Shown in pieces: positions 41,782 through 59,541 of a DNA stretch of 64,000 nt (positions are counted from its first letter, which is position 1; every line of letters begins with the position of its first letter). The translations under genes were made by a program, and so were the position numbers. The DNA lies in NCBI GenBank assembly GCA_965228895.1, contig OZ245842.1, positions 608,001 to 672,000 of the forward strand. The letters run 5' to 3'. The stretch is from Alphaproteobacteria bacterium (GTDB lineage Bacteria > Pseudomonadota > Alphaproteobacteria > SP197). The notes beneath the pieces were generated by a model. The model saw nothing but the letters and a program-made list of their open reading frames with translations. It had not been told where the DNA came from and ran no database searches.

Positions 41782-44049
41782 ATGAATAAATCACCGTCGG
41801 CCAACCGATGGAAACGCTACGACGTGTGGGATGACCGTCCCTTGCGCCTCGACGGATTTGCACCCGATAGCCCCGAGGACGGGTTCCGTGCAACCGACAG
41901 CCCGACCGACCCGTCACCCTCACTGCGTATCGATGATGGCGCGGTCGTCGAGATGGATGGCGTGGAGGCCGACCGCTTCGATATGATCGACGCCTTCATT
42001 GCGCGCTATCACCTTGATCTCGAGGTGGCGGAGGAAGCGATGGCCGTCGAGAGCGCGGATTTCGCCCGCCGCCTGATCGACGTCAATGTACCGCGTGATG
42101 ACGTTATCCGGTTGGCGCGCGGCATGACGCCGGCGAAACTGTGCGAGGTCATGGCGTGCCTGAACACGCTGGAGCTTTCGTTTGCGCAGACCAAACTTCG
42201 CGCGCGCAAGGCGCCGGGCAATCAGGCGCACGTGACCAACGCGAAGGATGATCCCGTGCAGATGGTTGCCGATGCGGCGACGGCGGCGGCCATGGGATTT
42301 GATGAAGTCGAGACCACCATGCGGGTCGCGCGCAATTCATGGTCCAATGCGCTTGCCTGTTTGATCGGCGCGACGGTCGGCAAACCGGGAACCCTTGTGC
42401 AGTGCGCCTGCGAAGAAGCCGAAGAGCTTAAGCTTGGCATGGCAGGCCTCACCTCCTATGCCGAGACCATCTCGGTCTATGGCACCGAGGGGTCGTTCAT
42501 CGACGGCGATGATACGCCGTGGTCGAAGGCGTTTTTGATTGCGGCCTATGCGTCGCGCGGCATCAAGTCGCGGTGCACGTCCGGTGGCGGCTCCGAACTC
42601 CTGATGGGGTTCCACGATGCCAAGTCACTGCTGTACCTCGAAGCGCGATGTCTTTGCGTACAGCGCGGCATGGGTGTTCAGGGTACGCAAAACGGCGGCA
42701 TAGACGGCGCGCCGGTAACGTCGTCGATCGCCGGCGGCATGCGCGAAATCCTGGCTGAAAACGTTCTGGCCGCTTTGTTGGACCTGGAATGCGCGTCTGG
42801 CAACGACACGCGTATCAGCGAGTCGGAGATCCGCGTCGGCGCCAAGATCATGCCCCATCTCATGTCCGGCACCGACTTCCTTTGCTCCGGTTTCGGGTCG
42901 GTGCCGGCTTACGACAACTCGTTCGCTGCGTCGCTGTTCAACGCCGAGGAGATCGAGGATTTTCTGACACTGCAACGCGATTTCGAGTTGGACGGCGGTC
43001 TGCGGCACATGCCGGAAGATGATGTCATGACATTGCGCCGCCGCGCTATTGATGCGTTGAAAGCCGTCTATGGCGAGCTGGGCCTTGCCGAGCTGAGCGA
43101 GCAACAAAAGACAAGCGCGTGTTATGCCAGCGGCTCCCAAGACACCGTGGCGTTTCGTTTCACGGAAGTCGGCCGGATCTCCGAACAGATCCGCGACCGC
43201 GGTATCACCTTGATCGACGTCATCGGCGCGTTGGCGCGAAGCGGGTTTGAAGATGTCGCGGAAAACCTGCTGGCACTGTGGCGCCAGCGCGTCAGCGGCG
43301 ATTATCTGCAGACAGCGGCGATCGTACGGGATGGCGTGGTCGTCAGCGCCGTCAACGATCCCAACGACTATGCCGGACCGCAGACGGGCTATCGCCTTTC
43401 ACCGGACCGCCACCAAGAGATCGCCCGGGTACGCGGCATCATGACCAAGGATCAGATCGTCGAGCTGGAGGAGCGCCATGCGACAGCGGAACGGCGGCGC
43501 TACCACATGGAGCCGGTCGGTCCGGCCGCAAAGGGCAATGGCGTTAACGAGGTTGTCATCGGGCTCAGCCCTGCCTTCGGAGAACGCCTGCACCGCACGA
43601 CATCGGGACTCTATCTGTCGCAAGTGCTGGCGGCCTTGGTCGACGGTATCAAGGAAGGTGGCGGGACAGCCCATGTGGTCCGCATACGCCACACCGCCGA
43701 CACATCGTTCCTGGGCCTGACGGCGGCTAGACTTTCCAACTCCGGAATCGGTATCGGCATTCAGGCGAAGGGAACGGCCGTCATTCACACCGCGCAGGAT
43801 GAACCGCATATGAACCTTGAGCTTTTTTCCCAGGCGCCGATTACGACTCTCGACCATTATCATGGCATGGGCCGCAATGCTGCCGCCTATGCGCAGGGTC
43901 TCGATCCCGAGCCGATCAGTATTCCCTATCGCGGCGAGGCATTGGGCGCGCGCTATCATGTTCAGACGTCGCTGATCTATGCCATCGAAACGGCGATGTT
44001 GGACCCCGACGCCGAACCGCAAACGTTGGAGGTGACGTTTCATGGCTGA
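41782..44049 (+). CDS. pduC: Adenosylcobalamin-dependent diol/glycerol dehydratase family, fused large (alpha) and medium (beta) subunits
   Basis: Alpha motifs NQAHVTN, GFDE.ETT, YAETISVYGT, DGDDTPWSK, QRD..DGGL, GDYLQT, SAVND.NDY.GP.TGYR, then beta motifs EVVIGLSPAF, SGIGIGIQ.KGT.VIH, NLELFSQAP, GRNAA.YA in one 755-aa frame. Confidence 0.93.
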   Translation: MNKSPSANRWKRYDVWDDRPLRLDGFAPDSPEDGFRATDSPTDPSPSLRIDDGAVVEMDGVEADRFDMIDAFIARYHLDLEVAEEAMAVESADFARRLIDVNVPRDDVIRLARGMTPAKLCEVMACLNTLELSFAQTKLRARKAPGNQAHVTNAKDDPVQMVADAATAAAMGFDEVETTMRVARNSWSNALACLIGATVGKPGTLVQCACEEAEELKLGMAGLTSYAETISVYGTEGSFIDGDDTPWSKAFLIAAYASRGIKSRCTSGGGSELLMGFHDAKSLLYLEARCLCVQRGMGVQGTQNGGIDGAPVTSSIAGGMREILAENVLAALLDLECASGNDTRISESEIRVGAKIMPHLMSGTDFLCSGFGSVPAYDNSFAASLFNAEEIEDFLTLQRDFELDGGLRHMPEDDVMTLRRRAIDALKAVYGELGLAELSEQQKTSACYASGSQDTVAFRFTEVGRISEQIRDRGITLIDVIGALARSGFEDVAENLLALWRQRVSGDYLQTAAIVRDGVVVSAVNDPNDYAGPQTGYRLSPDRHQEIARVRGIMTKDQIVELEERHATAERRRYHMEPVGPAAKGNGVNEVVIGLSPAFGERLHRTTSGLYLSQVLAALVDGIKEGGGTAHVVRIRHTADTSFLGLTAARLSNSGIGIGIQAKGTAVIHTAQDEPHMNLELFSQAPITTLDHYHGMGRNAAAYAQGLDPEPISIPYRGEALGARYHVQTSLIYAIETAMLDPDAEPQTLEVTFHG

Positions 44050-44473
44050 CAAACGCGATCAGGTCGAAGCGCTCTATCCGGCCAGCGAAAAACAGCAGGA
44101 TCGATTGACCACACCCGGCGGCCACACACTCAGCGATCTGACACTGCCGAACGTGTTGGCGGGAGGGCTTGGGACCGGTGATCTCGGTATCTCACCGGAT
44201 GCCTTGCGCCTGCAACGCGATGTCGCCGAGGCGACCGGCCGGTCTTGTTTGGCAGAGAACTTCGAGCGCGGTGCGGAACTGACCGGTGTCTCTCAGGACG
44301 AGATCTTCGCGACCTACAATCTGTTGCGTCCGGGACGCGCCGAAAGCAAACAGGAGCTTCTCGACCTCGCGCGGCGCTATCGTGACGAACACAACGCGCC
44401 CGAGATCGCCGGTCTGATCGAAGACGCCGCGGAAACGTACGAGAGACGTGGGCTGTTTCGTACCCGCTACTAG
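44042..44473 (+). CDS. pduE: Diol/glycerol dehydratase small (gamma) subunit
   Basis: YP.SEK, TP.G..L.DLTL, ENFERGAEL, YNLLRPGR, A..YE.RG; overlaps upstream stop. Confidence 0.9.
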   Translation: MADKRDQVEALYPASEKQQDRLTTPGGHTLSDLTLPNVLAGGLGTGDLGISPDALRLQRDVAEATGRSCLAENFERGAELTGVSQDEIFATYNLLRPGRAESKQELLDLARRYRDEHNAPEIAGLIEDAAETYERRGLFRTRY

Positions 44474-44534: not shown

Positions 44535-44936
44535 TTGGTTACGCATGAGAGTTTCACCAAGTGGCTCGACGCCTATGGCAGTGCCTGGGTTAACCAGAAC
44601 CCGGACGGCACCCTGGCTCTCTTCACCGATGACGCCACCTATATGTACACGCCGTTCCACAAGATCATGAAAGGCAAGGACGAGATTCGCCGCTACGTCG
44701 AGAAGGGCGCCGTTGGTCTACAGGAGGATATCGAATTCGACTACGAGGTCCTGGCCGTCACGGACGCGTACGGTATTAACCGATGGAAAGCGGCCTTGAC
44801 GTGGAAGGAGACCGGCGAGCGCCTCCACTTTGACGGCATCTATCAGGTCTTCTTGAACGACGACAACCTATGCCATCGCTTCGACGAGTGGTGGCATGCA
44901 AATCCACCGCTACCCGAAGACAACGCACCGGAATAG
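44535..44936 (+). CDS. SnoaL-like/NTF2 family protein
   Basis: WLDAYGSAW....LFTDDATY...PF...G..EI, DG......DD..C.RF.EWW; GGAGG RBS before TTG. Confidence 0.82.
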   Translation: MVTHESFTKWLDAYGSAWVNQNPDGTLALFTDDATYMYTPFHKIMKGKDEIRRYVEKGAVGLQEDIEFDYEVLAVTDAYGINRWKAALTWKETGERLHFDGIYQVFLNDDNLCHRFDEWWHANPPLPEDNAPE

Positions 44937-44971: not shown

Positions 44972-46504
44972 TCAAGCGATCGCGCCGACGACGCGTACGC
45001 GGGCGCGCAGGCTGTTGCCCGGCATATAGGCAAGCGGCAGGTCCTCAACCTCGACCAACTCCAGGCTTTCGGCATCCGCGCCCGCCTCGACCGCACGTCT
45101 TTCGGCGATACCACGCGCCTCGGCGATAGCGTCTTCGCGCGACAGACCTTGAAAGATCTGGTCGCACTCACCGGAGATCTGGGCAATCGCAGCGCCGACC
45201 GCATTGGCGACCTCGCCGTGTTCGACATGGATGACGTCGCTGACGCCGGCAATCTGATCAGGCACCAGAAAGGCGCCGCCGCCGACGGCAATGACCGGCA
45301 CGTCGCCGGCTTCGGTCTTCATGCGGTCAATTGCGACCGCGGTCATCTCGCGCATGGCCGCTATTGTTTCCTCGACCATCGCCTTGGGCAGGTCATCGAC
45401 CTTGTCGCGATCACCCAGGTCAATCAGGCCCTGGGCAACGGCGATGTCGGTTGCCGTCAGGTCGGGCCCGCCAAAGACGAGCCCGCGCTCGGTCAGCCGG
45501 TAGCCCGTACTCTCGGGGCCGATGGTGAGGGGATCTCTACCAATGAGCGTGCCGCCGCCGAGCGCGATGGAAAGTAGATCCGGCATCCGGAACAAGGTTC
45601 TGACACCGCCAATCTCGACGACGTTGTTGGCTTCGCGCGGAAAACCCGATTTCAGCATGCCGATATCGGTCGTTGTGCCGCCGACATCGACGACCATGGC
45701 GTCGGAAAGCCGGGACAGGAATGCCGCGCCGCGCATACTGTTGGTCGGGCCTGAAGCGAAACTGAACACCGGATACTTTTCGGCGACGTCGGCCAGCATC
45801 ACCGTGCCGTCGTTCTGGGTCAGGTAAAGCTGCGCTGTGATACCGCTGGTTTCGATCGCTTTGGTGAAGGCGGCTGTCGTCTTCTTGGCGAGGTCCTGCA
45901 GGCTGGCGTTCAGCAACGTGGCGTTCTCGCGTTCCAAGAGCCCGATGCGACCGAGCGCGCTGGAGCGGGTAACCGCGACGTCCGGACATTCCTCGGCAAG
46001 GATCGCGGCGGCCTGGTCCTCCAACTCGCTCGTCAGCGGTGAAAAAACAGAGGTGACGCCGACAGCCGTATAGCCGGCATCGCCAATGCGCTTTGCCGCC
46101 TCGCGCATGCCGGCTTCGTCAAACGGGGCAATGGGACGGCCGTCATACTCGTGGCCGCCCTGCAGCATGACGATCTCGCCCCGGACCTCCTCAGCGAGAT
46201 CGTCCGGCCAATCGATGAACGGCTCCAATGATGCGCTGGCCGGCAGGCAGATGCGAATGGCCGCGACCTTCGCGACGTCGCGCCGCTGGGCAACGGCGTT
46301 GGTGAAATGCGTGGTGCCGATCATGACGGCATCCAGGCCGGTCGGGTCGGCCGATGTCTGGGCCAAGACCTGCTTCAGGGCCTTGGTAATGCCCGACATC
46401 ACGTCTTCGGTCGTCGGCGTCTTGACCGAGCCGACGATGACATCGTCCTCGACCAGGACCGCGTCCGTGTTGGTGCCGCCGACGTCGATGCCGATGCGTT
46501 TCAT
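44972..46504 (-). CDS. Short stand-alone hydantoinase/oxoprolinase A-type (ATP-binding) protein, DUF917-associated
   Basis: GIDVGGTNTD, GTTHFTNA, ERENA, SGPTNSMRGA, DVGGTTTD, ANAVGAA; 510 aa; no B subunit adjacent. Confidence 0.9.
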   Translation of the reverse strand: MKRIGIDVGGTNTDAVLVEDDVIVGSVKTPTTEDVMSGITKALKQVLAQTSADPTGLDAVMIGTTHFTNAVAQRRDVAKVAAIRICLPASASLEPFIDWPDDLAEEVRGEIVMLQGGHEYDGRPIAPFDEAGMREAAKRIGDAGYTAVGVTSVFSPLTSELEDQAAAILAEECPDVAVTRSSALGRIGLLERENATLLNASLQDLAKKTTAAFTKAIETSGITAQLYLTQNDGTVMLADVAEKYPVFSFASGPTNSMRGAAFLSRLSDAMVVDVGGTTTDIGMLKSGFPREANNVVEIGGVRTLFRMPDLLSIALGGGTLIGRDPLTIGPESTGYRLTERGLVFGGPDLTATDIAVAQGLIDLGDRDKVDDLPKAMVEETIAAMREMTAVAIDRMKTEAGDVPVIAVGGGAFLVPDQIAGVSDVIHVEHGEVANAVGAAIAQISGECDQIFQGLSREDAIAEARGIAERRAVEAGADAESLELVEVEDLPLAYMPGNSLRARVRVVGAIA

Positions 46505-47607
46505 GCTGCGTCCTTCCCATTCGTCAGGGGGTGAGGGGAGTGATAGTCCATGTCATAGCCGAACGCCCGTGGCCCGACCACTTTGAGGGCGTGGGGCGTG
46601 GTCAGGACCGGTGCGGCGGGCAGTGAGACGATGACGACACGCTGGCCGTAGCGGATCGATTCCGTGCCGATCGCTTCGCCGTTGACCGCATCCAGAATGC
46701 AAATCAGATCGGGCACCATGACGCGGATCTCATTGTCGATGCTGCCGATCGTGAACTCGTTTTGAAAGTCGACGTCGAAGGTCTGACCGGCATAGCCGTC
46801 ACTTCCCGCGATGCGTGCCTTGCCCCGCACGAAGCCGTCCGTCGTGCGCCGGGCGACATCGACCACCTTGCCGCTGAACAAACGTAGACCGGCTTCGGCA
46901 TCAAGTACCGCATCACTGGGGTCCAGGTGACGACGCCGGGCCTCGGTGACCGCGCGGCCCAGGCGTATGGCGCGGCTGATGGAGCCGATGACGGCGTGGT
47001 CGCGAATCTGACGGCCGGTGCGCGGCGGTTTGCAGGTCGCGATCATCGCGCCGGTTTCCGTACAAAGCTTTCGGCCGATCCGCTCGGTCCATCGCGCGCT
47101 CGCGGTCTTCAGCAGCAGGACCTCGTTGTCACGGATGTCGGCCATGGCGATCGGATAAAGCGGCAGGTCGGCAATGACGAAGCTGGACATCTGCATTTCC
47201 GGGAAGGCGCGCCCGCGCGGGTCGGCGTCAAGCAGAGGAATATCCAACAGGGCCGCAACGACCAGAGGCAGAATGCCGTTTTCACCACCGATCTCCGACG
47301 ACATGACGGCGCGGAACGGCCGGCCCGTCAGATCCTGCATCATCTCGATAGGCCGGCAGATCTGCGCGGGATCGGGCAGTCGTTCCTTGGTGACCAGCGG
47401 CGCACCCATGAAACCGACCTCGGCGACCAGATCGTCGTTATCGAGGTCACATGGCTCGATCATTCCGACCCGCTTGCCCTCGCCGTAGAGTTTCTGAATG
47501 TTCAGCAGCTCGAGATAAGGATGGGTCCCACCACCGGTCCCCAAAATGCCCGTGCCGATCGCCAGAGCGGGCAGGTCATCGGCTTCGATGGGACGACGGC
47601 CCGTCAT
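46501..47607 (-). CDS. DUF917 family protein (paralogue 3 of tandem)
   Basis: LGTGGG, MGAP, EIGGEN, GRAFPE.QM, FQNE, VPDLIC, RYG, GPRAFG. Confidence 0.88.
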   Translation of the reverse strand: MTGRRPIEADDLPALAIGTGILGTGGGTHPYLELLNIQKLYGEGKRVGMIEPCDLDNDDLVAEVGFMGAPLVTKERLPDPAQICRPIEMMQDLTGRPFRAVMSSEIGGENGILPLVVAALLDIPLLDADPRGRAFPEMQMSSFVIADLPLYPIAMADIRDNEVLLLKTASARWTERIGRKLCTETGAMIATCKPPRTGRQIRDHAVIGSISRAIRLGRAVTEARRRHLDPSDAVLDAEAGLRLFSGKVVDVARRTTDGFVRGKARIAGSDGYAGQTFDVDFQNEFTIGSIDNEIRVMVPDLICILDAVNGEAIGTESIRYGQRVVIVSLPAAPVLTTPHALKVVGPRAFGYDMDYHSPHPLTNGKDAA

Positions 47608-48698
47608 GGGTCTGTTCCGAACAGCGACACGTAGTCGATGTCGTATCCGAAGGCGCGCGGGCCAACGAAGCTGAGACCGGCGTCGGAGGTCAGGATATCG
47701 GCGGCGGCAATCGCAACGATGCCAACGCGCAAACCATACCGAATGGTCTCGGTCCCGATCGCTTCGCCGGTATCGGCATCGAGGATGCAGATGAGGTCGG
47801 GCACCATCACCTTCAGCGCGCTATCGATCCAGGCGATGGTGAACTCGTTCTGAAAATCAACGTCGAAGATCTGACCTTCAAAATCATCCTGACCTTCAAT
47901 CCGGGCGCGCCCGCGCACGAAACCTGCCGTGGTTTGCCGCGCGACATCGACGACCTTGCCGCGGAACAGCAACAGGCCGTCTTCGGACTCCATGACCGCG
48001 GCGATGGGATCCGTGTGGGCCTTGCGTGCGCGGCGCACGGCACCGCCCAGCCGAATGGCGCGGCTGACGGTGCCGTGAACCGCATGGTCCTTGATCTCGC
48101 GCCCGGTTCGCGGCGGCCGGCACGTTGCGGCGATCGCACCCATCTCGGTGCAGAGGCGCCGGTTGATGCGCTCGACCCAGAGCGGCCCGCCGGCCTTCAT
48201 CATCAGGACCTCATTGTCGCGGATATCGGCCATGGCGAAGGGATAGAGCGGCAGGCCGCGAATCACGAAGCTCGACATCTGCATTTCGGGGAAGGCCCTG
48301 CCCATGCAATCGGCATCGACCACCGGGAGGTTCAGGAGAGCGGCGACCAGGAATGGCAAGACGCCGTTCTCCGCGCCGACTTCGCCCGCCATGACCGCAC
48401 TGAAGGTGGCGCCGGTCGCCTGGCGCATCATCTCGACCGGCCTGAGCGTGTGATGGGGATCGGGAAGGCGTTCCTTGGTGACCAGCGGCGCACCCATGAA
48501 GCCGAGTTCGGCAACGTGGTCATTGTCGTTGAGGTCATCGGGCGCAATCAGCGAAACACTGCGACCGGCGCGATAAAGCTTCTCGATGTTCAGCAGCTCG
48601 AAATAAGGATGGGTACCGCCGCCGGTTCCCAGAATGCCCGTCCCGATAGCGAGACTTCGCAAGTCATCGAAGGCCACAGGCGTGGTTGTCGCCATCAT
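47604..48698 (-). CDS. DUF917 family protein (paralogue 2 of tandem)
   Basis: Same motifs (EVGAEN variant); start overlaps upstream stop (TGATG). Confidence 0.88.
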   Translation of the reverse strand: MMATTTPVAFDDLRSLAIGTGILGTGGGTHPYFELLNIEKLYRAGRSVSLIAPDDLNDNDHVAELGFMGAPLVTKERLPDPHHTLRPVEMMRQATGATFSAVMAGEVGAENGVLPFLVAALLNLPVVDADCMGRAFPEMQMSSFVIRGLPLYPFAMADIRDNEVLMMKAGGPLWVERINRRLCTEMGAIAATCRPPRTGREIKDHAVHGTVSRAIRLGGAVRRARKAHTDPIAAVMESEDGLLLFRGKVVDVARQTTAGFVRGRARIEGQDDFEGQIFDVDFQNEFTIAWIDSALKVMVPDLICILDADTGEAIGTETIRYGLRVGIVAIAAADILTSDAGLSFVGPRAFGYDIDYVSLFGTDP

Positions 48699-49780
48699 CA
48701 GCCGCCGTGAAGCGAGACGTAGTCGAGGTCGTAGCCGAAGGCGCGCGGTCCGACCCACTCAAGTCCTTCCGGCGACCGCTGCAGGGGATCGGCGGCCAAT
48801 GACAGGACGTCGACACGCTGGCCATAGCGAATGGTCTCGGTGCCCAGGGCCTCGCCGGTCACGCTGTCGAGAATGCAGATCAGATCGGGCACGGTGACGA
48901 CAACGTCGCCGTCACGCCAGCCGATCGAAAATTCGTTCTGGAAGTCGACGTTGAAAACCGATCCGGCAAAATCATCCAGACCGTCGATCTTGGCATAGCC
49001 GCGGACAAAGCCGTCGGTCATGCGCCGTGCGACGTCGGCCACTTTGCCGCGAAACAGCGCCACACCGTTTTCCGCCTGAAGCACAGCCTGGATCGGGTTT
49101 TCATGCCGCCGCCGCGCCGCGCGCACTGCCGCACCGAGCCTGAGCGCCCGTGATACCGAGCCCAGTATGGCGTGGTCCTTGATCTCACGTCCGGTGCGTG
49201 GCGCCGAACAGGTCGCGGCAATCGAGCCGACCTCGATGCAGGCCTGGCGTCCCAGCCGTTCCGTCCAGGTCGGGCTGGCGGTTTTGGTGAGGATGAGGTC
49301 GTTATCGCGGATATCACACATGGCAAATGGCGCCATGGAGAGGCCGCGAATGGCAAAGCTCGCCATCTGCGCTTCGGGAAACGCGCGGCCCATGGCATCC
49401 GCATCGACCATCGGCATGCCGGTGAGCGCACCGATGAGGAGCGGCAGCATCGAGTTTTCGCTGCCGATCTCGATCGACATGACGGCCTTGAAGGGCTTGC
49501 CCGTGAACGCCTCCATCAAGTGCAGAGGACGCACGGCGTGATCGGGATCGGGCAGACGTTCCTTGGTCACCAGCGGTGCGCCCATGAAACCAACCACCGC
49601 GATTGTGTCGTCGTCTTCCAGGTCCTGTGGGTCGACCATCGTGACGCGCTTGCCTTCGCCGTAGAGTTTCTGGATGTTGAGCAGCTCAAGATAGGGGTGA
49701 GTGCCGCCGCCGGTGCCGAGCACGCCCGCACCTGTCGCGAGGTCTTCGAGTTCGTCGGCTGTTATCTCGCGCAATGACAA
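48698..49780 (-). CDS. DUF917 family protein (paralogue 1 of tandem)
   Basis: Same motifs (EIGSEN variant); GGAGG RBS before TTG start. Confidence 0.88.
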   Translation of the reverse strand: MSLREITADELEDLATGAGVLGTGGGTHPYLELLNIQKLYGEGKRVTMVDPQDLEDDDTIAVVGFMGAPLVTKERLPDPDHAVRPLHLMEAFTGKPFKAVMSIEIGSENSMLPLLIGALTGMPMVDADAMGRAFPEAQMASFAIRGLSMAPFAMCDIRDNDLILTKTASPTWTERLGRQACIEVGSIAATCSAPRTGREIKDHAILGSVSRALRLGAAVRAARRRHENPIQAVLQAENGVALFRGKVADVARRMTDGFVRGYAKIDGLDDFAGSVFNVDFQNEFSIGWRDGDVVVTVPDLICILDSVTGEALGTETIRYGQRVDVLSLAADPLQRSPEGLEWVGPRAFGYDLDYVSLHGG

Positions 49781-49789
49781 GGCGGCCTC

Positions 49790-50383
49790 CTAATCCAGTT
49801 TTTCGCCGCGGGACCAGCGTCGGGTCGCGGCAGCGACGCGGTGGCCGAACAAACGCGCCGTCAATCGATCGGTTTCGGGCGGCGAGGCGGGCGTCACCGC
49901 CTTGCCATCGGAATCCGCCATGGCGCCCAGGTAGCCGCCCTGGATGTTGTAACCTTCGGGCTTGCCCTGGCCGGTTCGGATGTCATTCATGGGATCCATA
50001 CCGACCCAGACCATGGCGTGCTGGGCGGCATAGACGGAGAGCGCCATCAAGACGCTTTGTTTGTCGCCGCTGGGTTCGCCGGCACAGGTGAAGCCGGCCG
50101 CGATCTTGTCGCGCCAACGCATGTCACCCCAGAAGGCGTCGGTCGCGTCCAGAAAAGCTTTCAGTTCGGCCGAGATGCCGCCGAAGTGGGTCGGACAGCC
50201 AAAGACGATGGCGTCGGCCTCGAACAGGCTGTCCCAGGGGACCGGATCGACGGCGACATCAACCAAAAGCGTCCTGACATCGCCGCCGTTCTCGGCGCCT
50301 TCTGCGATTTCCTTGGCGATGGCGGCGGTGTGACCCTTGCCGCTGTGAAAGCAGATGGCGATTGTGGTTTTTGCTTCGGCCAT
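49790..50383 (-). CDS. Flavodoxin-like WrbA family NAD(P)H-dependent oxidoreductase
   Basis: HSGKGHT, FGCPTHFG, K.AAGFT, SGDK, TARLFG.RVA. Confidence 0.88.
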   Translation of the reverse strand: MAEAKTTIAICFHSGKGHTAAIAKEIAEGAENGGDVRTLLVDVAVDPVPWDSLFEADAIVFGCPTHFGGISAELKAFLDATDAFWGDMRWRDKIAAGFTCAGEPSGDKQSVLMALSVYAAQHAMVWVGMDPMNDIRTGQGKPEGYNIQGGYLGAMADSDGKAVTPASPPETDRLTARLFGHRVAAATRRWSRGEKLD

Positions 50384-50391
50384 GGCAGGCG

Positions 50392-51471
50392 CTAGAGCAC
50401 GACGGCTGAGTCTGGCGCCCAGGTAAGACCGACCGACTGTCCCTGGGCAGGAACGGCGTCACCGGCATTGACGTTGACCTGCAGGCGTGAGCCGTCGGTG
50501 ACCGCAACGGTGACCTTGGCGACGGCGCCGGAAAAGACGACCTCGTCGATGGTGCCGTGAACGCCTTTGAAGCTGTCATCGGGGTTGCTGACAACCGTGA
50601 TGTTTTCGGGACGCACCACGAGGCGGACTTCGTCGCCCGATGCCAGTTTCCGGTGTTCGAAGTTGCGCGCCGCGAACACGTCGCCCGCCTGATTGCGCAC
50701 GGTCACTTGGTCGCCATCGATCCCGTCAACCGTGCAGATCAGCATGTTGGCTTCGCCCACGAAGTCGGCGACAAAGGCGCTTGCCGGGCGCTTGTAGACT
50801 TCTTCCGGTCCGGCAAGCTGCTCGACCTTGCCGAGGTTCATGACCGCGATCCGGTCGGACATGGTTAGCGCTTCTTCCTGATCATGGGTGACGTAGATGA
50901 ACGTGATGCCGACCCGACGCTGGATCTGCTTGAGCTCCGACTGCATTTGTTTGCGCAGCTTGAAGTCGAGCGCGCCCAGAGGTTCGTCGAGCAGAAGTAC
51001 GGCCGGTTCGACGATCAGCGCGCGGCCTAGCGCGACGCGCTGCTGTTGGCCGCCGGAAATCTCGCTGATGCGCCGCACGCCCATGCCCGGTAGGCCCAAG
51101 AGGTCGAGCATTTTTTCGACCCGTTCGGCGATTTCAGCTTTCCCCGTCTTGCGCATGCGCAACCCGAACGCAAGGTTCTGCGCCACGGTGCGGTGAGGGA
51201 AGAGGGCGTAGTCCTGAAACACCATGGACGTGTTGCGCTGATAGGGCGGCACGCCCAGAACCGATTGACCATGCAGGCGGATGTCCCCGGAGGTCGGCTC
51301 CAGGAAACCGCTGATCATCCGCAGCAAGGTCGACTTGCCGCAGCCTGACGGCCCCAGCAGCGTGACGAACTCGCCCTCCGCGATATCGATGCTGACATCG
51401 TCGACCGCGAGCACGTCATCGTAATACTTGACCACGTTCTCGACCGCGACGGCGGCCGTTGCTTCAACCAT
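50392..51471 (-). CDS. Polyamine/opine-type ABC transporter ATP-binding protein (PotA-like)
   Basis: GPSGCGKST, VFQDYALFPH, ISGGQQQR, DEPLGALD. Confidence 0.94.
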   Translation of the reverse strand: MVEATAAVAVENVVKYYDDVLAVDDVSIDIAEGEFVTLLGPSGCGKSTLLRMISGFLEPTSGDIRLHGQSVLGVPPYQRNTSMVFQDYALFPHRTVAQNLAFGLRMRKTGKAEIAERVEKMLDLLGLPGMGVRRISEISGGQQQRVALGRALIVEPAVLLLDEPLGALDFKLRKQMQSELKQIQRRVGITFIYVTHDQEEALTMSDRIAVMNLGKVEQLAGPEEVYKRPASAFVADFVGEANMLICTVDGIDGDQVTVRNQAGDVFAARNFEHRKLASGDEVRLVVRPENITVVSNPDDSFKGVHGTIDEVVFSGAVAKVTVAVTDGSRLQVNVNAGDAVPAQGQSVGLTWAPDSAVVL

Positions 51472-52327
51472 CGGCCTTGCCCTTCTGCGGCACGGTGTTG
51501 CGCATCTGACGCAGCATCCAGAGTTGGGCGGTTACGCTGAGCGTGATCGAGACGACCATGATAATGGTCGCGATGGCGTTGATTTCCGGCGACAACATGA
51601 AACGCAGACTGGTCCAGATTGCGATCGGCAACGTTTCATCGAACCCGGCGACAAACCACGCGACGATGAACTCGCCGAATGACTCGGTGAAGACCAGCAG
51701 AACGACGGCGATGATCGCCGGCGTCGTCATGGGCAGGATGATCTCGAAGAAGACACGCAGTTCGGACGCACCGAGATCCATCGCCGCCTCGATCAATGAC
51801 CGGCGAAAGCCCAGCAGACGCGAATAAAAGATCATCACGGCAAAACACAGCGTCAGCGTCGTGTGGGCGATGACGACGCCGATGCCGCCCATGAGCTCCG
51901 GAGAAAAGCGGAACAAAAGCAGCAGGCTGATGCCGATGACCATCTGGGGAATGATGATGGGTGAGAGGATCAGACCGAACACGATCGCCTTGCCGCGGAA
52001 CGGCCGCCACGCGAGCACCATGGCGGCGGGCATGCCGATGGCTGTCGCGACGACTGCCGTCACCAAGGCGATCCATGTGCTCAGCCACAGCGACTCCATC
52101 AGCGGCTCGTCGTTGAGCGCTTCGTCGAACCAGCCGAGTGTCAGGCCCTCGATCGGCAGCGCCGGGATCTGCTTGTCATTGAACGCAAAGAGGATGATCA
52201 CGAAGATCGGCAAATAGAAGAAAATATAGATCAGCGACACATAGGAAATGCCGAGAACGCGGCCGGTCTTGCCGCCGCCCGAACGATCGCCGCGGCGCGG
52301 CGAGGGGTTGTGATCGATGACCGCCAT
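51464..52327 (-). CDS. ABC transporter permease (PotC-like)
   Basis: YLPI, IAH, EAAMDLGAS, TLPIAIW, PEINAIAT; start MAVIDH. Confidence 0.92.
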   Translation of the reverse strand: MAVIDHNPSPRRGDRSGGGKTGRVLGISYVSLIYIFFYLPIFVIILFAFNDKQIPALPIEGLTLGWFDEALNDEPLMESLWLSTWIALVTAVVATAIGMPAAMVLAWRPFRGKAIVFGLILSPIIIPQMVIGISLLLLFRFSPELMGGIGVVIAHTTLTLCFAVMIFYSRLLGFRRSLIEAAMDLGASELRVFFEIILPMTTPAIIAVVLLVFTESFGEFIVAWFVAGFDETLPIAIWTSLRFMLSPEINAIATIIMVVSITLSVTAQLWMLRQMRNTVPQKGKADG

Positions 52328-53238
52328 CAGACCACATCCTCCATCTTCACCCACCGGAAGAGCGCGGCCAGGATCGCGAGAATGATGACCAGCAGAACGA
52401 CGGAAAGCGCCGCGCCGCCGGGCCAGTTCTGCGACGTCTCGAACTCCATGATGATGGCTTGCGAGATCAGCAGGTCCTTGCCACCGCCAAGCAGCTGCGG
52501 CACGACAAAGTCGCCGACCGAAAAAATGAAAGTGAAGACGGCGCCGACCACGAGCCCGGGAATGCAGAGCGGGAAGGTGACTTCGAAAAAGGCGCGCAGC
52601 CGGGTGGCGCCCAGGTCGGTCGCCGCGTCGAGCCACGAATCCTGCACCTTGTCGATGCTGGTATAGAGCGGCAGGATAAAGAAGGGCAGGAACGAATAGA
52701 TCAACCCGATGGCCGTCGCGACGGGCGAATAGAGCAGGAACGACAGGGGTTCATCGAGCACGCCGCCCAGCACCATGCCGGAATTGATGAACCCGCGCTC
52801 GCCGAGCAGCAGTTTCCAGGCGTAGGCGCGCAGGATGAGGCTGGTCCAGAACGGGATGATCACCATGATCAACAGCAACACGCGCCACGCGCCCGACTTC
52901 TTGGCGATGAAGTAGGCGATGGGGTAGGCGAGGATGGCGCAGACAATGGTGACGGCGACGGCGACTTCGAGCGACAGAATCAGCGCGTTGAACAGCAGCG
53001 GGTTTTCGAAGATCTGGGCGTAGTTGTAGAGCGTGAACGTGTAATCCATGCGGTAGTCGATCAGACGCCAGAAGCTGTAGATCGACAGCATGCCCATGGG
53101 CACCACGAAGAAGATGATCTGCCACAGAACGACGGGTCCAAGGCCCATCACGGACTTGAACCAGCCGCGCGCCAGAAGTGATCGGCGGGCCTGCGGTCGC
53201 GCCGCCGTGTCCGGCGCTGCTGCGTCTACCGTGCTCAT
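52327..53238 (-). CDS. ABC transporter permease (PotB-like)
   Basis: AYPIAY, PFWTS..LRAYAW, AA.DLGA, NWPGGAALS. Confidence 0.92.
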   Translation of the reverse strand: MSTVDAAAPDTAARPQARRSLLARGWFKSVMGLGPVVLWQIIFFVVPMGMLSIYSFWRLIDYRMDYTFTLYNYAQIFENPLLFNALILSLEVAVAVTIVCAILAYPIAYFIAKKSGAWRVLLLIMVIIPFWTSLILRAYAWKLLLGERGFINSGMVLGGVLDEPLSFLLYSPVATAIGLIYSFLPFFILPLYTSIDKVQDSWLDAATDLGATRLRAFFEVTFPLCIPGLVVGAVFTFIFSVGDFVVPQLLGGGKDLLISQAIIMEFETSQNWPGGAALSVVLLVIILAILAALFRWVKMEDVV

Positions 53239-53252
53239 GGACCTATGCTGCC

Positions 53253-53990
53253 CTAGGCGGCGTCGAAGCGATACTCCGCCCGCGCGTTGGGCGGTGTTGG
53301 ATAGGCGATCTTGCTGTGCCGCATGCCGGTCGAGACCAGCGCCTCGGTCAGCTTCATGGTCGCCTTCACCGGATCAATCACGGGGACATAAGCGCCGAGC
53401 CGCTGCTTCAGCGATTCCTCGATCTTCGCGGCCATGTCGACGCCGGTGCCCGTGCAGCCCATGACGATGACCTCCGCGCCGTCGTCTTCGACCGCCGCGA
53501 CCGCCTGGTCGACCGCCTTGGGCACGCGGTCGAGCCCGAAATCGAGGACGCCGGCGCCGACCTCGCGAACCGAGGCCAGCCGTTCACCCATGCCGACCTG
53601 GGCGGCAAGCTTGCGCATCATGGGGAACAGCTCGCGCTGGGTGATCATGATGGTGAAGCGGCCACCCAGGAGGCTCGCCATATGCAACGCGGCTTCGCCT
53701 TCGCCGACCACGGGGATCGACACCAGCTCCTTGGCGCCGGCGGCACCGGGATCGCCGAAACAGGTGATCATGCAGCCGTCGGCGCCATCGGCCTCGGCGT
53801 CGCGGATCAGACGCATGACCTCAGGCTGGGCGAGCGCCATGTCGTATTCGGACTCGATGCTGTTGGTCCCGTTCGCAACACAAGCGACCGTCAAGTCGAC
53901 GCCCGGAGAGGCGCAGGCTTGATATTCAAGCCTGGCCTTCTCCGCGAGAGCATCGGAGTGGAGGACCGGGACAACGATACGGATGTCCAT
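53253..53990 (-). CDS. Hydantoin racemase-like (Asp/Glu/hydantoin racemase family)
   Basis: SIES, CFGDPG and MGCTG (two catalytic Cys), PVIDP; GGAGG RBS. Confidence 0.88.
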   Translation of the reverse strand: MDIRIVVPVLHSDALAEKARLEYQACASPGVDLTVACVANGTNSIESEYDMALAQPEVMRLIRDAEADGADGCMITCFGDPGAAGAKELVSIPVVGEGEAALHMASLLGGRFTIMITQRELFPMMRKLAAQVGMGERLASVREVGAGVLDFGLDRVPKAVDQAVAAVEDDGAEVIVMGCTGTGVDMAAKIEESLKQRLGAYVPVIDPVKATMKLTEALVSTGMRHSKIAYPTPPNARAEYRFDAA

Positions 53991-54006: not shown

Positions 54007-55131
54007 TCAGGCAGCCTTGAACGTCTGCCAGGCCAAACGCCAGGCCTCTTCGTCGACCGGCGCGCGGTTGAGTTTGGACCGCAGGCCCCACTCGTCGATC
54101 TTGTCGAGGTTGAGGATGCGGAACTGCTCGGCGGTAATGTAGTCGGCCACCTTGGCGTTGCAGACCGCAATCTTCTGGCGGCCCCAGGCGAACTTGGAGA
54201 GCGCCTCGGCGCTGGTCATGTAGTTCAGGTACTGCTTGGCCGCGTCGACGTTTTGCGAACCCTGAACAATCTGCAGCGACTCCGTCCACATCGCGCCGCC
54301 CTGCTCGGGGATCGTCAGCGCGATGTCGTAACCGGCTTCCTGGACCGCAATCGACGTCTGATTGCTGCTGCTGCCCCACACGATCCACGCATCCTGGTTG
54401 GCAAGGTCGGTCTTGCCGGCGCCGACCTCGTTGTGGATGGCGCGCAGGTTGGGTTTGATCTCAACCAATCGTGCGACGATCTCATCAAGGGCTTCACCGC
54501 TTGCTTCTTCCGGTTTCTCCATGCCCAACCATTGGCCGGCCTGCCACAGGTAGAGCTCGCCCCAGTCGATGATGCTGATGCGATCGGCAAACTTGGAATC
54601 CCAGATGACATTGGCATCTAGAGCGTCGGCTTCCGACAGTTTGTCGCGCCAATGGACGATGCCGTTGATGCCCCAGCGTGTCGTGACGCCATAGAGCTGG
54701 TCGCCGACCAAACAATCGTAACAGTCCTTGAACGGCTCGAACATTTCCTCGAGGTGCGGAAAGTCGGCCCGGTCAAGCGGCATGGTCAGTCCGCTTTGGG
54801 CAAACTTGTCGGTCCACACGGTGTCCGGGTTGACGACATCGAACTGAATCGCGCCGGCGCGAAGCTGATCGAGCTGGTTGGCGTTGCTGCTCGCCGTCTT
54901 CACGTTGACGGTGATGCCGGTCGCCTCCTCGAACGGGCGCACGATGTCGGGATCGTCATAGCCCTCCCACGCCAGGACGTTGACGACACCTTCGGCGCGT
55001 GCCGGCGCCGGCCGGCCGACTTGGGATGCGATGGCGGCAAACATCGCGGCATTGGCGCCGTCGCGCATCAGGTGCCGGCGCGACAGCCGCTTCTTCAACA
55101 GGTCACGAAGCTCTTTTGTGCTGGATGCCAT
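54007..55131 (-). CDS. PotD-like ABC solute-binding protein with probable Tat signal
   Basis: SRRHLM...ARA signal, WEGY, FEEATGITV, WG..GI, P.QG...W. Confidence 0.9.
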   Translation of the reverse strand: MASSTKELRDLLKKRLSRRHLMRDGANAAMFAAIASQVGRPAPARAEGVVNVLAWEGYDDPDIVRPFEEATGITVNVKTASSNANQLDQLRAGAIQFDVVNPDTVWTDKFAQSGLTMPLDRADFPHLEEMFEPFKDCYDCLVGDQLYGVTTRWGINGIVHWRDKLSEADALDANVIWDSKFADRISIIDWGELYLWQAGQWLGMEKPEEASGEALDEIVARLVEIKPNLRAIHNEVGAGKTDLANQDAWIVWGSSSNQTSIAVQEAGYDIALTIPEQGGAMWTESLQIVQGSQNVDAAKQYLNYMTSAEALSKFAWGRQKIAVCNAKVADYITAEQFRILNLDKIDEWGLRSKLNRAPVDEEAWRLAWQTFKAA

Positions 55132-55310: not shown

Positions 55311-55340
55311 ATTGTTTGATCCAACTTGCAAGGCTGTCAA
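55311..55340 (-). promoter_or_regulatory. Sigma70-type promoter for the SBP-racemase-ABC-DUF917 operon
   Basis: Minus strand TTGACA-N18-AACAAT. Confidence 0.6.
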
Positions 55341-55413: not shown

Positions 55414-56424
55414 CTACATGCGGCTCGCGCCCCGTCGGTCGGTGCTCGCGCGCACCACAAGCTCGACGGAGACCAGTTTTGCACGTTCGCCGCCGCCGTC
55501 ATTCACGAGGTCGAGCAGCATCTCGACCGCCAGGTCTCCCAGCCTATCGGGAAAGACGCGAATGCTGGTCAGCGGCGGAATTGAACTGGCGGCAAGCACG
55601 GTCTCGCCTTCGCCGACCACGCCGAGGTCATCGGGTATGGCGATGCCGAGGTCGCTGGCCGCCTGCAGAACAGAAAGCGCCAGACTGTCTGTGCTGGCGA
55701 TGATGACATCGGGTCGTTCCGCGGCAGTCAATATCTCACGGGCGACGTCATAGGTTTTCTGGCTGAAAAAGTTGTCGCACCAAACGACCCGGCCCGGCAT
55801 CCCCCGCGCTTCGGTTTCTTTGCGAAATGCCTGCTCAACATCCGACTCGTAAGAGATAGTCGGTTCCTTGGTGAGCAGGAGTGGTCGCCGGTAACCCTGT
55901 TCGTCGAGATGCACGAAAAGGTCCGTGATCGCCTTGGTGTGGTCGTTGTCGACCCAGGGGATGTCTTTGCGATCCATCCAACGTCCGACCGTGATGACGG
56001 GCAGGTCGCGGTCGAGAAAGGCTGCGAGCCGCGCGTCGTTTGCGGCCGGATCGGCAACGATGACACCGTCGAGTTGCCCGAGCAATTCACCCTGGGCGAC
56101 GCCATTCTCGCCAAGCGCGTTGGGGATGAGAAGAAAGCCATACCCGACCTTGCCGGCGGCAGCGGACAGACCTTCGAGCAGCGCTGGGAAGTAAGGGTTG
56201 CGGTGCAGCAAGCTGCCTTCGGCTGGAAAACACACACCCAGGATCATCGAGCGCCCGGTCGCCAGCGCCTTGGCGCTCAGCCGGGGGCTGTAATCGAGAT
56301 CCCTGGCGGCCTCCATGACCCGCGCGACCGTATCCGCCGCCACGTGCCGGTTGCCCGAATAGACATGGGACACCGTGGTGATCGAAACGCCGGCCGCTGC
56401 CGCGACGTCATAGATGCTGGCCAT
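55414..56424 (-). CDS. LacI family transcriptional regulator
   Basis: SIYDVAAAAGVSITTVS HTH, A.AL hinge, IPDDL.VVG, PPLTSI. Confidence 0.95.
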   Translation of the reverse strand: MASIYDVAAAAGVSITTVSHVYSGNRHVAADTVARVMEAARDLDYSPRLSAKALATGRSMILGVCFPAEGSLLHRNPYFPALLEGLSAAAGKVGYGFLLIPNALGENGVAQGELLGQLDGVIVADPAANDARLAAFLDRDLPVITVGRWMDRKDIPWVDNDHTKAITDLFVHLDEQGYRRPLLLTKEPTISYESDVEQAFRKETEARGMPGRVVWCDNFFSQKTYDVAREILTAAERPDVIIASTDSLALSVLQAASDLGIAIPDDLGVVGEGETVLAASSIPPLTSIRVFPDRLGDLAVEMLLDLVNDGGGERAKLVSVELVVRASTDRRGASRM

Positions 56425-56575
56425 AGTCCGGGCACCTTGCCCCGGTGATGCTCAAATGTCTAACCGAGGTATCCGACCCCGACTCGACACTCACGCAAGC
56501 GGCTGGACTCGCCGGTCGGACCCGTGTTGAGGTGGTCGCACGCACCGGTAGAACGGTGACACGAGGGAGGGTGTG

Positions 56576-57325
56576 ATGCGAATTCGCGTACTGGTTCCCG
56601 TCCTCTATTCCGACGCATTGGTGAAGAAAGCGGCCGATGAATACCGCGCTGCCGCGGCGCCGGGAACGGAGATATCGGTGGCCGCGCTGGCGAATGGGAC
56701 GCGTACCATCGAGGCCGATTTCGACATTAGTCTTGCCGAGCCGGACACCATGCGTTTGACCGAGGTCGCCGAAAGAGACGGCATCGACGCGTGCACCGTC
56801 GCCTGTTTCAGCGACCCCGGCGTTGCCGGTGCGCGTGAGCTGGTGAGTATCCCGGTTATCGGAGAAGGTCAGGCGTCACTGACCCTCGCAAGTCTGCTCG
56901 GCACGCGCATCTGCGTGGTGACGACCTGGAATCAGTGTGTGCCGCGCATCAAGCGGCTGGTCGGCCAGCACGGCTTTGCCGAGAAGGTCGCCGCGATAAG
57001 GGCGGTCAATCTCGGTGTCATGGAACTCGACGAAACGTCGGTGCCCAGGATTGTCGCCATGACGGCCGATGCCGTGCGCACCGATGGCGCCGATGTCGTC
57101 GTCATGGGTTGCACGGGTACGGGCCTGGACATGGCCGGCGCCGTCGAATGTGGACTCGAAGAAGCGGTTGGTGCCCGCGTTCCGGTAATCGATCCGGTCA
57201 AGGCCGCGATCAAACTCGCCGAAACCTGTGTCGCGACGGACATGCGCCATAGCAAGACTGCCTGGCCGACGCCACCCCATGACCGACAAGAGTATCGTCA
57301 TCTCACGGCCGAGGCGGCCGCTTAG
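56576..57325 (+). CDS. Hydantoin racemase-like (second copy)
   Basis: CFSDPG, MGCTG, PVIDP; colinear with 53253-53990. Confidence 0.88.
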   Translation: MRIRVLVPVLYSDALVKKAADEYRAAAAPGTEISVAALANGTRTIEADFDISLAEPDTMRLTEVAERDGIDACTVACFSDPGVAGARELVSIPVIGEGQASLTLASLLGTRICVVTTWNQCVPRIKRLVGQHGFAEKVAAIRAVNLGVMELDETSVPRIVAMTADAVRTDGADVVVMGCTGTGLDMAGAVECGLEEAVGARVPVIDPVKAAIKLAETCVATDMRHSKTAWPTPPHDRQEYRHLTAEAAA

Positions 57326-57328
57326 GTC

Positions 57329-58453
57329 ATGCCGGCAGGCCGACTGTCATCGCGTGAGGATATCGAGGACTTCACCCGGGGCACCGACTTTCTGTCCGCT
57401 TCGGGCGGTGGGCCGACAACGGAAGCGCGCGGGTTTCTGGGTGAGCTGCTGGAGCAGGGAACATCGATTGCCTGGTGCGACATCGACGCCATCGACGATG
57501 ACGCGCGGGTGTGTTGCACGTTCTTTTCTGGGTCGGTGGCACCAAGCCGCTATGACCGAAGCGGACCGGAACGCGAGTTCGGCATCACCACGACGGATCC
57601 CCATCCGACGGTCTTGGCGGTCTTGGAACTGGAACGCCAACTTGGTCATGAGTTTGATGTCATCGTGCCGATCGAAATTGGCGGCAACAACACAGGCCAC
57701 GCCCTGGCGACCGCTGCGGCACTCGGCAAAACGGTGCCTGATGGCGACTTCGCCGGACGTGCGATTCCAGAAGCGACCTGCATCACCCCGCACATAGCCG
57801 GCCTCGCCATGACGCCGCTGGCGTGCGCGAACTACTACGGCAACCGCGTCTTTCTTCGTTCGTCCCAGAACAACGAAATGGCGGAACGCGTGACCAAGCA
57901 GCTGGCGGTCGCGTCATTCGGCTGTGTCGGTTGCGCCGCGTTTCCCATGTCAGGCAAGGACGCGAAGAAACTGGCGGTGCCCGGCACGTTGACACGGTCA
58001 CTGCTGATCGGCCAGGCCATCCGCGAGGCGCAAACGGCCGGGCGCGATCCGCTGGACGAAGTCGCATCGCGGGTCGACGGTGTCCACGTGTTGTTTCGCG
58101 GCCAGATCGTCAAACGATGGTGGGAAAGCCGAGACGGCTACATGTGGGGCGAGCATGTGTTGGCTGGTCTCGACGCCAGCGAAGGCCACGAACTGAAGCT
58201 GTGGTTCAAGAACGAAAACCATGTCTCCTGGCTCGACGGTGAGCCTTGGGTCAGCGGACCGGACGTTCTCGAACTGGTCGATCTCGGCAGCGGCGAGCCC
58301 GTCGTCAACAGCTTTGCCGAGGAAGGCCAGAAGGTCGGCGTCATGGGTGTTCGGCGCTGTGCCCAATTTGGTGGTGAGGCGGGCATCGCAGCGCTCGGCC
58401 CGCGCCATTGGGGTTTCGACTGGGACTACCGGCCGATCGAGGACCTAATCTGA
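57329..58453 (+). CDS. DUF917 family protein (fourth, divergent paralogue)
   Basis: SASGGG, EIGGNN, DGDFAGRAIPE, FKNEN, PD, LGPRHWG. Confidence 0.85.
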   Translation: MPAGRLSSREDIEDFTRGTDFLSASGGGPTTEARGFLGELLEQGTSIAWCDIDAIDDDARVCCTFFSGSVAPSRYDRSGPEREFGITTTDPHPTVLAVLELERQLGHEFDVIVPIEIGGNNTGHALATAAALGKTVPDGDFAGRAIPEATCITPHIAGLAMTPLACANYYGNRVFLRSSQNNEMAERVTKQLAVASFGCVGCAAFPMSGKDAKKLAVPGTLTRSLLIGQAIREAQTAGRDPLDEVASRVDGVHVLFRGQIVKRWWESRDGYMWGEHVLAGLDASEGHELKLWFKNENHVSWLDGEPWVSGPDVLELVDLGSGEPVVNSFAEEGQKVGVMGVRRCAQFGGEAGIAALGPRHWGFDWDYRPIEDLI

Positions 58454-59365: not shown

Positions 59366-59541
59366 TTCTCGTGAACGTCCATGGTGTCGGCCGCAACGAG
59401 AGTCGCATCAACTGCCGGCTGGCGCTTCCGCCGGCTTGACTCGGGAACCAGACACGAAAGAGATTGGGCCATGGTGACTAGAACGAACCGATGGGACACA
59501 CGGCGCGACGGCGCCGCTGTGATCCCGAATTGTGTGCTGAG

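Follow-up and report, generated by a model that had tools for sequence, protein, structure and literature searches.

The locus analysed here lies in a 64,000-nucleotide (nt) stretch of an alphaproteobacterial genome (GenBank assembly GCA_965228895.1, contig OZ245842.1, positions 608,001 to 672,000; hereafter the window, numbered from its first letter) and comprises three tandem genes for DUF917 proteins, D1, D2 and D3, followed by a single gene for a short HyuA-type ATPase of the ASKHA class. All four are on the minus strand: D1 (48698..49780; 360 residues, loop EIGSEN), D2 (47604..48698; 364 residues from its ATG, loop EVGAEN), D3 (46501..47607; 368 residues, loop EIGGEN, directly 5′ of the ATPase gene) and HyuA (44972..46504; 510 residues, assigned by Pfam). 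They form the 3′ end of an operon that reads, in order, PotF-like binding protein, the racemase Rac1, two permeases, ATP-binding cassette (ABC) transporter ATPase, WrbA-like flavoprotein, D1, D2, D3 and HyuA. D1 starts at a TTG codon with GGAGG upstream; the ATG taken as the D2 start fits the orthologue alignments, and the list of open reading frames also has an upstream GTG at 48758. D1 and D2 overlap by 1 nt (TGATG), and D2/D3 and D3/HyuA each by 4 nt (ATGA), stop/start arrangements from which D1, D2, D3 and HyuA are predicted to be translationally coupled and co-produced. An earlier description from the letters of the DNA alone (the sequence-only reading) had proposed three intact, overlapping paralogues with shared motifs and distinct loops, next to one short HyuA-like gene with no HyuB beside it. 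Both proposals were confirmed: the quoted motifs and the EIGSEN/EVGAEN/EIGGEN difference are all present in the alignment, and a Pfam scan gave no match to PF02538 (HyuB) in the operon.

The family formerly called DUF917 is now covered in Pfam by S-Me-THD_N (PF06032) and S-Me-THD_C (PF20906), and D1-D3 match both over the full profiles (E values of 1e-47 to 1e-51 and 1e-64 to 1e-66; 160-172 bits for the N domain and 216-222 bits for the C domain, with a cut-off of 27). Pairwise identities are 61% (D1/D2), 64% (D1/D3) and 67% (D2/D3). The structure model of D3 (predicted local distance difference test score, pLDDT, 92.3) matched the sole solved member of the family, 2O3I (Foldseek E 1.6e-23, template-modelling score 0.80; VIA-align Z 40, root-mean-square deviation 2.2 over 336 residues, 21-22% identity). 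This protein, CV_3147 of Chromobacterium violaceum, is a structural-genomics entry without an assigned function and has the same two-domain fold as D3. Across 63 sequences, including a fourth, divergent copy in the window (D4, described below), the invariant polar residues are E105, N110, D127, D129, R133, E137, E175, N283 and E284 (D3 numbering), and not one His or Cys is invariant. D1-D4 retain all 23 family-invariant residues, and of the 136 columns with 95% or higher conservation among 71 single-copy HyuA-linked relatives, D1 keeps 86%, D2 81% and D3 80%. No HyuB-type chain was listed among the fold matches of D3 by Foldseek or by VIA-align, in which only 2O3I exceeded Z 5, an absence from these lists that does not exclude such a fold; D1-D3 likewise gave no match to PF02538 at E up to 0.001. 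The suggestion in the sequence-only reading that DUF917 replaces HyuB holds insofar as no HyuB lies beside the pair, but not as a homologous replacement, since the D3 model matches 2O3I only; if DUF917 does stand in for HyuB, the model indicates that it would do so as an unrelated fold.

The ATPase matches Hydant_A_N over positions 1-176 of 176 (131.9 bits) and Hydantoinase_A only over 1-176 of 291 (90.7 bits), both above cut-off. Its model (pLDDT 90.9) resembles the HyuA-type subunits of N-methylhydantoinase, acetone carboxylase, acetophenone carboxylase and caprolactamase (9H03, 5M45_B, 5SVC_B, 5L9W_B/b and 6YRA_A; E 2e-22 to 2e-30, TMq 0.65-0.80), whereas other ASKHA ATPases reach a TMq of only ~0.3. 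At 510 residues it is 140-220 residues shorter than the solved HyuA-type subunits (650-730 residues). The motifs D7-G-G-T11...D14 and D273-x-G-G-T-T...D280, of the phosphate-binding DxGGT type, are invariant in 48 sequences and resemble, as matched by motif only, residues named for the caprolactamase subunit CapA in the accessible part of its description (PMC8453981).

The association of DUF917 with HyuA, described in the sequence-only reading as frequent neighbourhood or fusion, was borne out on a broad scale. In 76 of 79 genome loci a DUF917 gene has a short HyuA gene directly after it (median gap, 15 nt); of the other three, one has its HyuA 3.1 kb away, one has none and one lies too near a contig end to be judged. 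The metagenome loci, which include many gut contigs at ~40% identity, gave adjacency in 70 of 79 (of the rest, 7 could not be evaluated, 1 gave no DUF917 match and 1 has no HyuA although its contig is long enough), and pairing was seen down to ~35% identity. Assemblies bearing the pair are labelled Alphaproteobacteria, Rokubacteria/Methylomirabilota, Acidobacteriota, Chloroflexota and Verrucomicrobiota, besides one Nitrosotalea metagenome-assembled genome (MAG). The pair in this last, archaeal-labelled assembly (L071) is accompanied by ABC transporter genes, is of almost the same type as the pairs of Rokubacteria/Methylomirabilota and nests among them in the tree; it could reflect transfer or a binning error. 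Among longer relatives of D3, all 38 of 38 fuse Hydant_A_N, Hydantoinase_A and both S-Me-THD domains in one polypeptide; most are fungal, a sea cucumber and a clam are also represented, and the HyuA part was N-terminal in four of the five fusions checked. Searching from the HyuA side yielded 876 representative clusters at E up to 1e-30, and the best 150 representatives comprised 61 of stand-alone size, 59 of at least 641 residues and 30 fragments; S-Me-THD domains were found in 49 of the 50 long ones that were scanned. That DUF917 and short HyuA form a functional pair, and do so generally, is therefore strongly supported by these genomic patterns, and they probably also form a physical pair.

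A stoichiometric subunit is not the only role in which such an ATPase might accompany DUF917. It also has weak Pfam and NCBIfam matches to ASKHA helpers of the MutL/GlmL and BcrAD/BadFG types, and it might instead use ATP to activate or maintain all three DUF917 proteins (by metal loading or reactivation, for example), serving them sub-stoichiometrically, one helper for several enzymes being a way to account for the 3:1 gene ratio. We regard this as rather improbable, given that the fold is close to HyuA-type subunits and far from activators (TMq 0.65-0.80 versus ~0.3), and that the widespread 1:1 fusions and tight adjacency fit a stoichiometric subunit better.

To our knowledge, HyuA/HyuB enzymes (oxoprolinase, N-methylhydantoinase, caprolactamase, acetone carboxylase) provide the only studied route that spends ATP to open very stable cyclic amides. 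The window HyuA matches in fold, and resembles in its motifs of the phosphate-binding type, the ASKHA HyuA components of hydantoinase, 5-oxoprolinase and the CapAB caprolactamase of Pseudomonas jessenii, and in both kinds of system HyuA lies beside, or is fused to, a second component in an operon for a cyclic amide, a proposed one in the window. The second component differs, being a PF02538 protein in HyuA/HyuB systems and DUF917 here. For caprolactamase, the proposal is that the lactim form of the substrate is phosphorylated by the HyuA-type subunit and that the intermediate then passes through a tunnel to a metal site in the HyuB-type subunit, as set out in the accessible part of the report (PMC8453981). 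The Asp-His-Asp-His metal tetrad described there for CapB has no counterpart in DUF917, whose invariant residues are Asp, Glu, Asn and Arg. The fungal and invertebrate fusions, annotated 'hydantoinase' or 'DUF917-domain-containing protein', consist of the same modules as the window genes and are 30-52% identical to D3 over DUF917, but are single polypeptides with a 1:1 ratio, whereas the window has separate genes with three DUF917 to one HyuA.

Drawing on these likenesses, we propose that the operon would serve to import and degrade a cyclic amide or ureide, small and chiral, of the hydantoin, lactam or imide type. The short HyuA would bind ATP and phosphorylate the amide oxygen of the substrate in its lactim form, as in HyuA/HyuB enzymes, and a DUF917 protein, with its fold apparently unrelated to HyuB and its conserved acidic cluster, would then process the activated ring. 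D1, D2 and D3 would be three specialised modules made together with one ATPase, and would either take turns in pairing with it, to act on related substrates or consecutive intermediates, or join in a mixed DUF917 assembly. We give about an even chance of being correct to this reading, in which an ATP-dependent hydrolase of cyclic amides has two components, one of them the ATPase and the other present as three subfunctionalised DUF917 modules. Hints to the substrate come from the PotF-like importer, from two racemases of the hydantoin/allantoin type and from an AstE/AspA-type deacylase gene in a related locus (L023), as well as from two proteins that every triplet module retains, the flavoprotein and the SnoaL-like one; in sum, these hints favour a ureide or cyclic amide that is small and chiral.

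Whether the three copies represent a lasting arrangement was addressed with a scan of one genome per species, with 40 relatives from the same genus, family or class, and with a separate, even sample of 400 other genomes of the class. The triplet was not found among the 40 relatives, where the search gave just one other type of DUF917 (51-57% identical; that of the fifth copy described below), in single copy and in a few tandem pairs. It was present in 1 of the 400 class genomes (G107), on the same contig as in L024. Three alphaproteobacterial assemblies, L022, L024 and L025 (the last labelled Dongiaceae), carry the whole module in the same order. A metagenome scan with D2 found no further D2 orthologue, its best two matches (L101 and L102) being of D3 type. 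The shared module of ~13 kb runs from binding protein, racemase, permeases, ATPase and WrbA through D1, D2, D3 and HyuA to a convergent SnoaL-like gene and the divergent D4. D1 orthologues occupy the same position in the three assemblies with 71-77% identity; the values are 62-67% for D4 and 74-83% for the SnoaL-like gene, which has the same place in all three and was also seen in L184 (the L024 contig). L022, L024 and L025 have unrelated flanks. Next to D4, at the far end of the module, all three carry a gene of the TetR family, and a LacI orthologue was not found in them, the sole match being one at 26% in L024. Such unrelated flanks imply that the module of ~13 kb has moved or been reshuffled. 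The second racemase gene, Rac2, is present in L024 and L025 and was not found in L022. In L022 the Rac1 orthologue (5784-6510) is in two pieces in different frames, which indicates a frameshift or a MAG assembly error.

In trees rooted on D4, the D2 clade (four rows) had a Shimodaira-Hasegawa-like approximate likelihood-ratio test (SH-aLRT) support of 99, the D3 clade 90-93 and D2+D3 96-98, and the D1 clade reached 91 in a smaller tree. Single-copy genes from a Hoeflea MAG and from Shinella sumterensis, whose loci share the transporter and the racemase, branch beside the D1-D3 clades; the WrbA-like gene of the triplet modules in L022, L024 and L025 is missing from these single-copy loci. Since D1, D2 and D3 each form a one-to-one orthologue clade over the four assemblies, the triplication predates the divergence of its carriers. 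Pairwise ratios of nonsynonymous to synonymous substitution rates between orthologues (dN/dS, NG86 method) were 0.14-0.39 for D1, 0.18-0.39 for D2, 0.12-0.44 for D3 and 0.12-0.32 for HyuA. A sequencing run of a second organism, from another study, yielded contigs in three pieces that cover all 30 bins of the region at 96-99% identity and without insertions or deletions (35, 45 and 68 differences over 2,439, 1,116 and 1,913 bases, respectively). In two runs from different studies, the contigs break inside the paralogue array at 47383-47410 and 48471-48498, with overlaps of ~28 bases; the breaks probably fall at words common to the paralogues, and short-read assemblies can split such arrays.

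These data bear directly on the idea that the triplet is a recent, redundant amplification at strain level that is heading to decay, a circumstance that the sequence-only reading had named as telling against its own proposal. The rarity just described, with no triplet in the 40 relatives and one in the 400 class genomes, would be expected of such an event, but the orthologous triplets in three assemblies with unrelated flanks, the divergence of the paralogues (just 61-67% identical), the dN/dS of 0.12-0.44, and the intact frames, together with the run of the second organism that covers the region without insertions or deletions, leave it next to no credibility. Although rare, the triplet is by these comparisons ancient and under constraint.

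The copies have also diverged in a patterned manner. Departures from the conserved columns that are common to D1-D3 and the Hoeflea and Shinella genes (W20G, S65G/C, Q113L/F, W171P/A, M174T/V and L260V) predate the triplication and are consistent with a substrate change in the transporter-linked clade. Others are specific to single copies: position 108 holds a residue fixed in each orthologue group (D1 has S, D2 A and D3 G); at position 193, D1 has S, D2 R and D3 K/R; M131R occurs in D3, and A194P in D2 and D3. These copy-specific residues adjoin invariant motifs, and the pattern, as judged from the alignments, is one of subfunctionalisation and not of redundancy. With the triplication preceding the divergence of the carriers, such signatures lead us to consider D1-D3 as putative specialised modules.

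Three other families in the class sample have two DUF917 genes with one HyuA gene, in the orders D-D-HyuA (L180 and L185), HyuA-D-D (L181) and HyuA-D-D (L182 and L183), and these arrays arose by duplications separate from that of the window triplet. This recurrence favours a real several-to-one relation. In a related arrangement (L023, 4477-9221), a sodium:solute symporter gene lies upstream of a D1-type gene, the AstE/AspA-type deacylase gene, a D3-type gene and HyuA.

Several observations weigh against the hydrolase with three modules around one ATPase. A D3-type gene and HyuA, 73-80% identical to those of the window, occur alone in L066 (944-3893) and in pieces in L101 (1-2177) and L102 (300-1474), which counts against an obligate D1-D2-D3 complex. 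In L066 and L102 the D3-type gene comes directly after a 97-residue fragment of an alpha/beta hydrolase that in the window is sited beyond D4, in what looks like a deletion of ~11 kb removing D4 through D2, while L101 starts inside D3. DUF917 genes also stand alone without a nearby HyuA, as in a fifth copy of this genome (55% identity) and its orthologues and at the loci of three true thiohydantoin desulfurases, and since DUF917 functions elsewhere with no HyuA, the ATPase may be dispensable for D1 and D2. The fusions imply a 1:1 ratio and the gene ratio here is 3:1; only five columns separate HyuA-linked from stand-alone DUF917, and these do not settle which copies bind HyuA. The dN/dS values given above are rough, with dS near saturation. 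Finally, we found neither a description of a HyuA-linked DUF917 enzyme nor biochemical data for one in the searchable literature, with subscription journals outside its scope. The accessible part of a study of cyclodipeptide oxidases reports an enrichment of genes for DUF917, hydantoin racemase and AroM around those of the oxidases, a further hint to the substrate, and states there that DUF917 proteins lack experimental characterization (PMC11055893).

Alternatively, only D3 might work with the ATPase, D1 and D2 being ATP-independent DUF917 hydrolases that act on other intermediates of the same pathway. In favour of this, besides the D3-type genes with HyuA in L066, L101 and L102, and stand-alone DUF917 being common (the fifth copy with its orthologues, D4 and the true desulfurases), duplicated pairs elsewhere usually keep a HyuA for each DUF917 (L088, L092, L135 and L183). 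Yet D1 and D2 nest inside the HyuA-linked clade, D1/D2 and D2/D3 are translationally coupled, and two DUF917 genes with one HyuA recur in the three other families, so that we consider this alternative unlikely, albeit the most serious of those weighed against three modules sharing one ATPase. The fifth DUF917 gene itself (G000:C1:4499284-4500336; L018 7273-8358) is 55% identical to D1, lacks a HyuA and overlaps the end of an alpha/beta-hydrolase gene, with genes for an amidohydrolase and FAD/2Fe-2S oxidase-like proteins near; it is the usual single copy in the family of this organism.

Another alternative, which the sequence-only reading had entertained as a desulfurase activity, is that D1-D3 are (S-methyl)thiohydantoin desulfurases of an ergothioneine-like pathway that release H2S or a thiol. 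The literature searched yielded no primary paper on the desulfurase of the ergothioneine pathway. Thiohydantoin desulfurases have the same Pfam domains as D1-D3, at ~22-28% identity, and the sole NCBIfam matches of D1-D3 are to the equivalog models for thiohydantoin desulfurase and S-methyl thiohydantoin desulfurase (NF058529 and NF058532). The scores, however, are 86-110 bits, far under the cut-offs of 440-450, whereas three true thiohydantoin desulfurases in the class sample score 574-599 bits. Gene context differs as well. No HyuA was found within ~9 kb of the three true loci, two of which (L189 and L191) have aromatic-lyase-like and urocanase-like neighbours that we take to fit the ergothioneine pathway, and genes of these two kinds are absent from the D1-D3 operon and its flanks. 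Desulfurases share D127, R133, N283 and E284 with D1-D4. At four positions that show no variation among members of the HyuA-linked, D4 and fifth-copy groups (E105, N110, D129 and E137), the desulfurases have Q, S, V and T. With scores, context and conserved acidic residues all at variance, a desulfurase role is very improbable. The shared residues suggest that the family may have a common scaffold for attack on a ring carbon, to which the HyuA-linked branch would have added a further cluster of acidic residues that might accommodate a metal and the phosphate leaving group.

Returning to the ATP-dependent hydrolase that we favour, the system is a variant of the HyuA-type enzymes, and the triplet a rare, conserved elaboration and not a new principle. 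What it brings forward is a second and very common partner for a HyuA-type ATPase, a neighbouring gene across several phyla and fused in eukaryotes. It is possible, and we suggest it only tentatively, that HyuA-DUF917 constitutes a large ATP-dependent class of ring-processing enzymes in which the phosphorylated intermediate is received by a fold apparently unrelated to that of HyuB, and that in several lineages DUF917 has been duplicated into a mixed assembly round one ATPase. A precedent for such an assembly is acetophenone carboxylase, whose core, as given in the accessible part of its description (PMC5214803), is (alpha alpha' beta gamma)2, with duplicated and diverged paralogous subunits in one complex; there it is the HyuA type that is duplicated, here the non-HyuB partner. 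A mixed assembly, if real, would parallel those paralogous subunits and provide several substrate sites for one ATP module. The operon is a favourable entry point, with its own importer, binding protein, racemases and regulator, and its three diverged DUF917 copies offer a chance to see specificity divided around one ATPase. Enzymes of this kind could serve in the mild hydrolysis of hydantoins or lactams.

The remaining operon genes, all on the minus strand, were assigned as follows. The periplasmic solute-binding protein (54007..55131) is PotF/PotD-like, with a Pfam SBP_bac_8 match, Protein Data Bank sequence matches of the PotF/PotD type (E 1e-11 to 5e-21) and weak NCBIfam PotF/PotD matches. 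Rac1 (53253..53990) belongs to the Asp/Glu/hydantoin racemase family (PF01177, E 1.6e-37); its nearest solved relatives are 3QVJ, a 'putative hydantoin racemase' (E 1.6e-32), and the allantoin racemase 5LFD (E 2.1e-24), and both Cys-containing motifs, presumably catalytic, are visible in its translation. The two permeases (52327..53238 and 51464..52300, the start codon of the second being our choice) match PF00528, and the transporter ATPase (50392..51471) combines PF00005 with a TOBE domain (PF08402). The WrbA-like protein (49790..50383) has a flavodoxin fold, with matches to FMN_red and Flavodoxin, and the NCBIfam WrbA models matched below their cut-offs. Convergent with HyuA, on the plus strand, is the SnoaL-like gene (44535..44936; PF12680).

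A LacI-family regulator gene (55414..56424, minus strand; Pfam LacI and Peripla_BP_3/1) sits between the operon and a divergent unit on the plus strand. The latter contains Rac2 (56573..57325), the second Asp/Glu/hydantoin racemase (PF01177, E 5.6e-35), and beside it, beyond the regulator, the fourth DUF917 gene, D4 (57329..58453), which was identified by tblastn and alignments and is absent from the sequence-only reading; it is 29% identical to D1 by tblastn and 26-27% in the alignments. A promoter-like site, TTGACA-18-AACAAT, with 10 of 12 matches, lies 5′ of the binding-protein gene (55311..55340, minus strand). As a scan of 14.2 kb found this one site against 2.8 expected by chance, the hit itself is no evidence, and it is the position alone that suggests a promoter.

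The genome as a whole has 12 PF02538 and 12 Hydantoinase_A matches, an unusually rich set of the ATP-dependent hydantoinase/oxoprolinase type, and most of the PF02538 matches are, by their coordinates, within a few kb of a full-length Hydantoinase_A match. Two of them fall in the window (~11.2-12.7 kb and 18.7-20.3 kb), both near full-length Hydantoinase_A, and correspond to two canonical full-length HyuA/HyuB pairs on the plus strand (~9710-12717 and 17276-20271). Also on the plus strand are genes for a B12-type diol/glycerol dehydratase (41782-44473), with large and medium subunits fused (755 residues, Dehydratase_LU and Dehydratase_MU) and followed by the small subunit (143 residues); no counterpart was seen in L022, L024 and L025, which places it outside the conserved module. 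Farther along the same strand, a class-III aminotransferase gene is followed by one for an APH-family phosphotransferase (59491-61790), a pair that we take to resemble kinase/phospho-lyase pairs.

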